59,596 bases of DNA from a virus (taxonomy: Duplodnaviria; Caudoviricetes). The DNA lies in IMG/VR virus record IMGVR_UViG_3300021962_000117, positions 1 through 59,596 of that record, one strand, 5' to 3'. The notes under the pieces were generated by a model. The model worked only from the letters and a program-made list of their open reading frames with translations. It was not told the origin of the DNA and made no database searches. Numbering within the stretch: the stretch's first letter is position 1; each line of letters starts with the position of its first letter. Positions 9,787-38,236 of the stretch are shown here, piece by piece. The position numbers were made by a program, and so were the translations under genes.

Positions 9787-10026
9787 ATGTCACAGACAAC
9801 AGTAATTTATTCTAATGGTAGCCAAGAATGCGAGCGGATGGCAATGCTCCTTGAATCTCTTGGTGGAGAATTTCATGAGTATCTACTGGGAGTAGATTTT
9901 AGTGATCGTCAATTCCGTGCTGAGTTTGGACCTGAAGCAACGTATCCACAATGTTCTATTGGATCAAAACATATTGGAAATATGAAAGAAACACTTCAAT
10001 TTCTAAAAGAGAAAGGACTTTTCTAA
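9787..10026 (+). CDS. Glutaredoxin-like protein with degenerate active site (SQEC)
   Basis: VIYSNGSQECER...ATYPQC...HIG pattern; RBS-like gaagg before ATG 9787 (track start 9703). Confidence 0.75.
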   Translation: MSQTTVIYSNGSQECERMAMLLESLGGEFHEYLLGVDFSDRQFRAEFGPEATYPQCSIGSKHIGNMKETLQFLKEKGLF

Positions 10027-10029
10027 AAC

Positions 10030-10045
10030 TGTATCATATTATACA
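10030..10045 (+). promoter_or_regulatory. NtcA-binding box
   Basis: TGTA-TCATATTA-TACA is a perfect TGTA-N8-TACA, lying 1 bp upstream of the -35 hexamer. Confidence 0.7.
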
Positions 10046-10046
10046 A

Positions 10047-10076
10047 TTGACAACGTATAGATAGTAATGGTATAAT
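10047..10076 (+). promoter_or_regulatory. Sigma70 promoter with extended -10
   Basis: TTGACA(10047-52)-N18-TATAAT(10071-76), preceded by TG-n; predicted TSS ~10081-10083. Confidence 0.85.
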
Positions 10077-10083
10077 AACCATG

Positions 10084-10332
10084 CGTTCATCCTATGACTA
10101 AAGCACTCTTGCTTTTAGCATGGGTTCCACTTTTTTCTGTTTCGACGCCACGACTTATTCAAAATCCATATCCTGTGACTATAAGTTGTGACGCAGCGTG
10201 GGAACTGATGGACATCGTTAAAAACGACGATGTAGTAAATCAAAGAAGAGAAGACCGATTGCTATTGGAACTCCGAAAGGATGTAGTTCAAAGGTGCTAA
10301 AATTAAATAGGACGCAAGTAAGTCGCGGAACG
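10084..10332 (+). ncRNA. Glutamine riboswitch-like aptamer unit 1 (glnA/Downstream-peptide type) with an ORF in its P2 loop
   Basis: CGTTC-A-TCCTAT[ORF]ATAGGA-CGC-AAGTA-AGTCG-C-GGAACG: P1 CGTTC/GAACG, P2 TCCTAT/ATAGGA. Confidence 0.7.
10094..10300 (+). CDS. Small secreted/membrane protein (C-x35-C) nested in riboswitch unit 1
   Basis: MTKALLLLAWVPLFSVS...ISCDAAWELM...VQRC. Confidence 0.75.
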   Translation: MTKALLLLAWVPLFSVSTPRLIQNPYPVTISCDAAWELMDIVKNDDVVNQRREDRLLLELRKDVVQRC

Positions 10333-10335
10333 GAG

Positions 10336-10533
10336 CGTTCATCCCAATGTTTTCAACAATTTTAATTTATGCAACATTGACTTGTTCTCAAGCCAATGCT
10401 CTGATCAATAAAGCCCAAAAGAACGAAAGTATTTCTGAACCTATTAGAAATGAAATAGTTCAAACTATTAAAGAATCTGCTTCAGATTCTTGTTGGGAGT
10501 TGAAAAATAGGGACGCAAACGACTGAAGGAACG
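10336..10533 (+). ncRNA. Glutamine riboswitch-like aptamer unit 2 with an ORF in its P2 loop
   Basis: CGTTC-A-TCCC[ORF]GGGA-CGC-AAA-CGACT-GAA-GGAACG; CGACT (10520-24) is complementary to AGTCG (10321-25). Confidence 0.72.
10347..10526 (+). CDS. Small protein (59 aa, C-x35-C) nested in riboswitch unit 2
   Basis: Hand translation MFSTILIYATLTCSQANALINKAQKNESISEPIRNEIVQTIKESASDSCWELKNRDAND; the stop codon lies inside CGACTGAA. Confidence 0.7.
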   Translation: MFSTILIYATLTCSQANALINKAQKNESISEPIRNEIVQTIKESASDSCWELKNRDAND

Positions 10534-10568
10534 GGAATTAACATTCTCATTTCTTTAGGAGAACAACC

Positions 10569-10736
10569 ATGAACACACTTCAACTGATTAAAGAGCAGCT
10601 TCAAAAAGCAAATGCTCTTCATGATGCTCAGATCTATCACACCACATACCGTGGTTGTGAGTTTAGAGTAGGCAGTCATGAACCAAAGGAGACACACGGT
10701 ACATTTCAGTATCGCGGACATACTTACAGTAAATAA
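10569..10736 (+). CDS. DUF4278-like small protein (two YRG motifs; family related to GS-inactivating factor IF17)
   Basis: MNTLQLIKEQLQKANALHDAQIYHTTYRGCEF...HGTFQYRGHTYSK; RBS aggag; sits downstream of a glutamine riboswitch, as DUF4278 genes typically do. Confidence 0.8.
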   Translation: MNTLQLIKEQLQKANALHDAQIYHTTYRGCEFRVGSHEPKETHGTFQYRGHTYSK

Positions 10737-10737
10737 A

Positions 10738-10762
10738 CAAAAGGACCTACGGGTCCTTTTTT
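10738..10762 (+). terminator. Rho-independent terminator
   Basis: aaaaggacc-tacg-ggtcctttt followed by a T-tract. Confidence 0.9.
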
Positions 10763-10792
10763 GTGTCTAGGTATAAACTAGTAGGCATTAAT

Positions 10793-10836
10793 ATTTGTTA
10801 AGGATTGCTGACAAATCATATACATAGTGATAGAAT
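10793..10836 (+). promoter_or_regulatory. Sigma70-like promoter with an inverted repeat over the -35
   Basis: CTGACA(10808)-N17-TAGAAT(10831) with TG-n; ATTTGTTA-N8-TGACAAAT palindrome at 10793-10816. Confidence 0.5.
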
Positions 10837-38152: not shown

Positions 38153-38236
38153 GGGAGCGTGGCGGAAGTGGTAGACGCACCAGACTTAAAATCTGTTGGG
38201 AGTATTCCCGTGTCGGTTCAAGTCCGACCGTTCCTA
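38153..38236 (+). tRNA. trnL: tRNA-Leu (anticodon TAA)
   Basis: Acceptor GGGAGCG/CGTTCCT-A, D-loop GGAAGTGGTAGA, anticodon arm CAGA-CTTAAAA-TCTG, long variable arm, GTTCAA T-loop; CCA not encoded. Confidence 0.95.

Follow-up and report, generated by a model that had tools for sequence, protein, structure and literature searches.

Putative glutamine-riboswitch-type aptamers in tandem, with small protein genes nested in their P2 loops, in a T4-like cyanomyovirus fragment

Riboswitch aptamers are usually treated as compact non-coding leaders. Protein ORFs in the peripheral loops of a structured RNA are a feature of group I and group II introns, in which a helix closes across the ORF; such introns occur with and without their ORFs, which can pass from one host to another, and the proteins encoded are homing endonucleases or maturases that serve the intron. 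In leader-peptide attenuation and in translational riboswitches that bury the Shine-Dalgarno site or the AUG (SAM-II, preQ1-II), ribosome position and RNA folding exclude each other, and in the SAM-II and preQ1-II type the start site lies in the ligand-stabilised helix. Two types of glutamine riboswitch are relevant here, Glutamine-I (glnA RNA, RF01739) and Glutamine-II (Downstream-peptide motif, RF01704). A tandem arrangement is described for glnA RNAs (Weinberg 2010). Glutamine-II is reported from marine picocyanobacteria, upstream of short DUF4278-like ORFs, as an ON switch (Klaehn 2018; Huang 2019). According to the same authors both types are ON switches for IF17-type genes, the DUF4278/IF17 gene class is associated with glutamine riboswitches (Klaehn 2018, PMC6212724), and the ligand stabilises the CGUUC/GAACG helix (Klaehn 2018, PMC6212724; Huang 2019, PMC6698751). 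The ligand-contacting, conserved nucleotides of Glutamine-II are described as clustered in this helix and its third strand (Huang 2019, PMC6698751). The survey of McCown 2017 (PMC5473149) gives only two glutamine aptamers in cyanophage genomes and presents phages as rare users of riboswitches, and in the relevant parts of two cyanophage genome papers the glutamine riboswitch figures only as an Rfam-type feature (PMC9964418, PMC9602691). In the literature that our search covered, no published description of genes inside a riboswitch aptamer was found.

The stretch of DNA analysed here (the window, 59,596 nt; IMG/VR record IMGVR_UViG_3300021962_000117) is a fragment of a T4-like cyanomyovirus. 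A self-contained unit was located between a glutaredoxin-like gene and thyX, with thyX and phoH just downstream. It is one short transcription unit, all of it on the plus strand, in which a promoter is followed by two aptamer-type units (A and B), a small gene (ORF3) and a terminator. The blastn relatives of the query region, which also spans the neighbouring ORF3, were Synechococcus and Prochlorococcus phages (413 phage records). The promoter is of the sigma-70 type (TTGACA-18-TATAAT with TG, 10047-10076; 12/12 consensus matches) and its equivalent is kept in most relatives. Since 7 nt separate its end from unit A, transcription probably begins at the first P1 strand or immediately upstream of it. 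The -10 box itself lies inside a DNA palindrome (window 10067-10082), whose arms covary among relatives (L005-L123) around a fixed TATAAT; examples are GGTCTATAATAGACC, GAGTTATAATACTC and GGGACTATAATGTCC in relatives and ATGGTATAATAACCAT in the window. In a minority of relatives a TATAAATA box (T4-late-like) and a GNRA-type hairpin stand in place of this palindrome.

Unit A (10084-10332) reads CGTTCA-TCCTAT at 10084-10095 and ATAGGA-CGCAAGTAAGTCGCGGAACG at 10307-10332. Its P1 is formed by 10084-10088 with 10328-10332, the P2 arms are 10090-10095 and 10307-10312, and the core CGCAAGTAAGTCGCGGAACG occupies 10313-10332. A 3-nt linker, GAG, separates it from unit B (10336-10533), which reads CGTTCA-TCCC at 10336-10345 and GGGA-CGCAAACGACTGAAGGAACG at 10510-10533. 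Here P1 is 10336-10340 with 10529-10533, P2 pairs 10342-10345 with 10510-10513 and continues in 10350-10357 paired with 10499-10506, and the core is 10514-10533. Both units share the layout CGTTCA / P2 / GGACGCAA..GGAACG, with P2 loops of 211 nt (unit A) and 164 nt (unit B). The initial annotation had described this pattern as occurring twice, back to back, and the description was borne out. Two matches to the 5' half, CGTTCATCC, were found in the 59.6 kb, where 0.22 were expected and 1 of 100 shuffles reached two; the 3' half, GGACGCAA-N8-12-GGAACG, was likewise matched twice (0.00 expected; 0/100 shuffles). All of these matches fall at the locus and nowhere else.

Each P2 loop carries an ORF, and the start codons were found where the initial annotation had placed them, in the 5' P2 arm or 1 nt after it: the ATG of ORF1 (68 aa, 10094-10300) overlaps the arm of unit A and that of ORF2 (59 aa, 10347-10526) follows the arm of unit B by 1 nt. 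The further claim that a whole gene lies within each P2 loop needs amending for ORF2, whose reading frame continues across the 3' P2 arm and CGCAAACGAC of the core up to a TGA (10524-10526) inside the conserved CTGAAGGAACG. A GGAG at 10332-10335 in the A-B linker, 11 nt upstream of the ORF2 ATG, is likely to be the Shine-Dalgarno site of ORF2, and the 5' strand of the unit B P1 lies between this GGAG and the AUG. Directly 3' of the unit B P1 there is a spacer hairpin (10534-10549), a stem of the GGG..CCC type that covaries among relatives and may act as expression platform; next come a pyrimidine tract and AGGAG (10557-10561), then ORF3 (55 aa, 10569-10736) and finally an intrinsic terminator with a 9-bp stem and a T run (about 10739-10770). 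In about one third of the relatives the spacer hairpin contains an additional module, some 30 nt long, consisting of ACGGATCC, a covarying GAAA-loop hairpin and AGAAGGTTAA (L010, L022, L030, L074, L096, L099, L118 and others). It is absent from the window and may be a further regulatory element.

This layout can be set against the systems named above. In contrast to the group I and group II introns, the host RNA here is a putative metabolite sensor located in the leader of an mRNA, and the sensor helix includes the start and stop codons. Unlike in attenuators and riboswitches of the SAM-II and preQ1-II type, the translated ORF lies inside the aptamer and not after it; its product is a conserved protein of 50-75 aa, and the same sensor also precedes a second gene.

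In order to identify the aptamer type, Rfam models were used. No Rfam glutamine family was matched in the window at the gathering cut-offs, at E ≤ 10 on 9950-10800 or in the searches with RF01739 and RF01704. This silence is expected from inserts of 164-211 nt and was not counted against the aptamer reading. The sole gathering-level match in the window was a tRNA gene with a 12-nt variable-arm insert (38153-38236, 51.7 bits). Natural compact homologues at the same locus, which have a short P2, were used as loop-free versions: in phage Bellamy units A and B both have a P2 of tetraloop size, and in S-MbCM7 unit A is compact and unit B is loaded. Outside P2 the window units are identical, letter for letter, to compact units of this kind. 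Unit A matches the compact units of L004 (RF01739, 30.4 bits) and L124 (37.2 bits), and unit B matches the compact unit B of Bellamy (34.5 bits) and of L134 and L137 (36.0 bits). When 13 further compact loci were scored with RF01739, five passed the gathering cut-off of 35 bits (46.4, 37.2, 36.0, 36.0 and 35.6 bits) and six more gave 27-35 bits. Counting the 34.5 and 30.4 bits given above, the values under the cut-off were 34.8, 34.5, 34.1, 31.7, 31.6, 30.4, 28.3 and 27.4 bits, so that many compact homologues fall just short of it. With RF01704 the compact homologues reached 24-32 bits (best 32.1), under its cut-off of 33 bits. The claim that the two halves are those of a glutamine aptamer is thus supported by empty-loop relatives, which match Rfam Glutamine at up to 46.4 bits.

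The alignments made by cmscan retain P1, P2 and ACGCAA, plus GAAGGAACG in unit B. Of the joining strands in the RF01739 consensus (ACGGAAGUA, P3 and GAAG), unit A has ACGCAAGUA and is without GAAG, and unit B has ACGCAA and GAAGGAACG and is without GUA and P3. In compact and window-type units P3 is lost or reduced to 2 bp. P1 CGUUC/GAACG, which RF01739 requires, is present in both window units, and both carry a C where the Glutamine-I consensus has a G (ACGGAA). The likeness to Glutamine-I thus comprises P1, a P2 placed right after CGUUCA, the ACG.AA(GUA) strand and, in unit B, GAAGGAACG. The units differ from Glutamine-I in having a gene 50-75 codons long within P2, no P3 or one of only 2 bp, and aptamer helices that incorporate start and stop codons together with a Shine-Dalgarno site; the window units are invisible to Rfam. 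With Glutamine-II they share the core CGUUCA..CC/GG..CGCA..GGAACGG, and the parts that correspond to its ligand-contacting cluster are the invariant parts of these units; unlike in Glutamine-II, for which no nested genes are described, its 3' pseudoknot hairpin is unmatched here. Units A and B are probably minimal aptamers of the glutamine-riboswitch type, composed of P1 CGUUC/GAACG, a P2 hairpin and an ACGCAA third strand.

The distribution of the arrangement was then evaluated. An exact search for the unit B core returned at least 119 viral contigs, and 121 loci, including the window and four named phages, were parsed as an RNA-core sample. Unit A was empty and unit B loaded in 59 loci, both were loaded in 40 and both empty in 7; B was loaded with A not seen in 13, A was loaded with B empty in a single locus, and A was empty with B not seen in another. 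Since this sample had been picked by its RNA core, the count was repeated anchored on the ORF3 protein. Among 80 such loci, the 70 with at least 650 nt upstream were counted: A empty and B loaded 29, both loaded 22, A loaded and B empty 12, both empty 3, a single unit 3 and none 1. A recognised unit therefore precedes ORF3 in 69/70 loci, and all four empty/loaded combinations occur.

Anchoring on the nested proteins was carried out with internal peptide motifs. The family found in unit A (A1) is encoded by at least 423 viral contigs and that of unit B (B1) by at least 580, and the best 80 loci per family were examined. Both aptamer halves were found in 79/80 of these loci for A1, the remaining one being cut by the contig end, and in all 79 assessable loci for B1, 12 of them with a one-letter core variant. 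In the unique units the 5' half was exact in 63/63 (A) and 58/61 (B), the ATG lay at offset 10 in 60/63 and 59/61, and the stop was at a fixed place in 61/63 and 61/61, respectively. When 185,579 prokaryote genomes were searched for the B1 family, only two MAG contigs were found, both with the whole phage cassette.

The homologues with empty loops that had been sought were thus found, Bellamy (both units) and S-MbCM7 (unit A) among them. The initial annotation had spoken of riboswitch loops used as gene slots, a fair description given that the loops are either empty or filled with genes of different families. Load state was found to differ in 7 pairs of loci with at least 93% ORF3 identity. 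In one comparison, L136 (A empty, B loaded) and L137 (both empty) share an ORF3 with 99.4% identity and a nearly identical spacer, and are unrelated upstream of the unit B core. The recombination joint falls at the conserved unit B 3' core (L136 1140-1520 against L137 570-770). This break suggests that slots are exchanged by recombination at the cores. In two loci, L039 and L052, the unit is a hybrid: the 5' half leads into an ORF of the A1 family, and a B-type core stands at the end (inserts of 389 and 321 nt). Both are probably fusions of units A and B.

The nested ORFs were examined as protein genes. Median dN/dS was 0.31, 0.22 and 0.20 in three length classes comprising 38, 13 and 24 unique sequences, and variation was highest at third codon positions, then first, then second. 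In the alignments indels stayed in frame, and Cys, Trp and Pro were found at invariant positions. These patterns indicate that the nested ORFs are genes under purifying selection. Mean pS was 0.47-0.63, so that synonymous sites are nearing saturation while the aptamer halves stay nearly invariant. ORF1 belongs to the A1 family as a divergent member with a shortened C-terminus: it is 21-31% identical to 24 members, it conserves both Cys of the A1 pattern PY..SC...C, and it was without a Pfam or PHROG match. Its stop lies 7 nt before the 3' P2 arm, which is atypical for the family; in a typical unit A one P2 arm contains the start codon and the other the stop codon. ORF2 belongs to phrog_504 (B1 family; E = 1.3e-14) and ORF3 to phrog_545 (E = 2.2e-28), both of them PHROG families of unknown function.

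A hydrophobic N-terminus and two cysteines are common to all the nested families. The predicted model of ORF2 is a two-helix hairpin with adjacent cysteines (pLDDT 73.6). No functional match was obtained when its fold was searched against the PDB (best E = 1.5), and the ESM Atlas search gave unnamed viral clusters only. Comparison of the A1 and B1 profiles (probability 7.4%, E = 0.0048, 27 columns) did not demonstrate common ancestry. The in-core stop of unit B was seen to vary between TGA and TAA (CTGAAGG against CTAAAGG) in L158, L165, L172, L175, L192 and others. Empty units can carry the A variant too, which indicates that either G or A is tolerated at this core position.

Pairing across the inserts was assessed in the relatives. 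P2 directly follows CGUUCA and has covariation support, although its helix spans 164-211 nt and not a tetraloop. In 38 loaded A units 94.9% of the cells were paired, against at most 53% when the partner was slid. One P2 pair was UA in 20 units, CG in 17 and UG in 1, and another was UA in 18, CG in 8 and other in 12; the covariation score was 0.161 vs 0.099, and none of 500 shuffles was as high. On the 3' side the covarying letters belong to the stop codon (TAA, TGA or TAG), and those with which they pair precede the ATG, which means that coding constraint alone cannot explain the covariation. Compact units showed many P2 pair types and rich covariation. The proposed check of P1 and P2 in homologues thus came out in favour of P2, which covaries across inserts of about 200 nt; P1 never varies and is uninformative in this respect. 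A reading of the arms as a MITE or as terminal inverted repeats was considered and rejected, the basal pairs being the aptamer's own P2, present and covarying in empty units as well.

Cognate 24-nt arms were more stable than non-cognate ones both in unit A (-15.2 vs -9.7 kcal/mol) and in unit B (-12.1 vs -9.6 kcal/mol), with 0/2000 permutations as low in either case. The closing of P2 was then evaluated with the arms kept and the interior of the insert shuffled, for 31 A units taken from 38 and 41 B units taken from 100. The closing probability of A units was 0.88 with the native insert and 0.32 with the shuffled one, the native value being higher in 30/31; for B units it was 0.76 and 0.33, native higher in 38/41. 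The exception among the A units is that of the window (0.44 native vs 0.49 shuffled). With a divergent ORF1, an early stop and a P2 that closes no better than with shuffled inserts, the window unit A is a weak case. Minimum-energy folds close P2 in both window units (z = -3.0 and -3.2). Taken over the relatives, these data make it likely that the RNA is selected to close P2 across the nested gene.

ORF3 carries YRG repeats and is DUF4278-like (IF17-like). Its own match to DUF4278 (E = 0.0039, 18 bits) is under the cut-off of 25.3, and 25 of 35 ORF3 homologues reach DUF4278 at E ≤ 0.01, all the scores shown being under the cut-off. By analogy with cyanobacteria, ORF3 is the gene that tandem aptamers conventionally control. 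The state of the linker follows that of unit B: it starts with GAG in 93/94 loci with a loaded B vs 1/7 with an empty B in the RNA-core sample, and in 35/37 vs 5/13 in the ORF3-anchored set. All four sequence runs compared with the window consisted of contigs. Two metatranscriptome libraries contained contigs over the region, one of which (381 nt, 1 difference) covers 10335-10715; given that DNA carry-over is possible, they are weak evidence of expression and no proof of transcription. Other metagenome and metatranscriptome contigs skip exactly the two P2 inserts (10092-10310 and 10341-10514) and have 4-12 different letters joining the flanks. They come from compact-loop relatives that occur in the same samples and are not products of splicing.

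The explanation that we consider probable, on the strength of the comparisons above, is that both units are working aptamers whose fold hides the nested starts, glutamine turning the nested genes off and the IF17-like ORF3 on. Expansion of each P2 hairpin would have made room for a small gene whose product has a hydrophobic N-terminus and two cysteines. Glutamine would stabilise P1 and P2 and bury the nested start sites, and the folded state would release ORF3 as in the cyanobacterial ON switches; the direction of regulation is given by analogy only. Ribosomes on a nested gene would melt P2, and those on ORF2 would melt the core and P1 too, with the terminating ribosome of ORF2 sitting on both. 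Because nested translation would have to melt the sensor helices, translation and ligand sensing may be mutually exclusive, and the positions of the start codon, the stop codon and the Shine-Dalgarno site point to such a competition between ribosome and aptamer fold. Recombination at the invariant cores may, in turn, fill and empty the loops and exchange their contents between phages.

Other explanations were weighed against the same data. The aptamers might be relics in which gene insertion destroyed sensing, their halves persisting as recombination joints or translation signals. The break at the unit B core, the load states that change between close relatives (the 7 pairs with at least 93% ORF3 identity) and the lack of an Rfam match in loaded forms agree with this idea, which is nevertheless unlikely: the halves are nearly invariant next to ORFs whose synonymous sites are near saturation, a dead aptamer would need neither P2 arms that covary across the insert nor native inserts that favour closure, and recombination joints leave the complementarity of the arms unexplained. 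A slightly smaller chance is given to a glutamine-riboswitch fold that senses another ligand, a protein or nothing, or that merely provides translation-blocking helices. Cores that deviate from the Rfam consensus (ACGCAA for ACGGAA; P3 or GAAG missing) and Rfam scores around the cut-off could be understood in this way; against it, the glutamine contacts described for Glutamine-II (CGUUC/GAACG helix and third-strand CG; Huang 2019) are retained without exception, the Glutamine-II consensus itself has C at the variant position and the downstream gene is DUF4278-like, as in cyanobacteria.

It is also conceivable, if improbable, that the locus forms one nested aptamer from the 5' half of A and the 3' half of B, with a long P3 insert between them, or toggles between this and the tandem fold. 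The best Rfam match (46.4 bits, L185) is this hybrid alignment, A and B have the same P1 strands, and the two units together supply all the consensus segments. Such a hybrid would, however, span more than 400 nt in loaded forms; taken by itself, each unit scores 36-37 bits, ORF3 is in some loci preceded by a single unit, and in variant cores (L124, L161) each unit has its own small P3. The alignment in question (L185 1353-1442) joins the two halves as one Glutamine aptamer and scores above either unit alone. As a separate observation, the inner strands GAACG-GAG-CGTTC (window 10328-10340) could pair together into an alternative fold. Finally, the inserts could be non-coding RNA expansions whose open frames are incidental. 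ORF1 is without a family match, but the dN/dS of 0.20-0.31 with codon periodicity, the conserved Cys, Trp and Pro positions, the indels in threes, the phrog_504 match of ORF2 (E = 1.3e-14) and the fixed start and stop positions make this highly improbable.

A further step beyond the explanation considered probable, to which we would give rather less than an even chance, is that each aptamer is a two-output, translation-coupled switch that toggles two sets of small proteins, its loop being an exchangeable slot and its core a recombination joint. In the absence of glutamine, ribosomes would enter the nested gene and keep the sensor melted while translating. If this were true, phage riboswitches would be common and hidden from covariance-model searches. 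With a gene occupying P2, most copies escape detection by Rfam, and in the GenBank records of the four named phages the nested ORFs are hypothetical proteins or are unlisted, with no RNA feature. That aptamers can tolerate inserts of 140-220 nt matters for the design of riboswitch searches, and the natural series of empty and loaded loops offers ready-made experimental controls. If the units sense, they would represent a new riboswitch wiring, in which the sensor encloses one regulated gene and precedes another, so that opposite outputs from one ligand and a direct coupling of translation and sensing become possible. Such a layout would link cyanophage infection to the glutamine and nitrogen status of the host.
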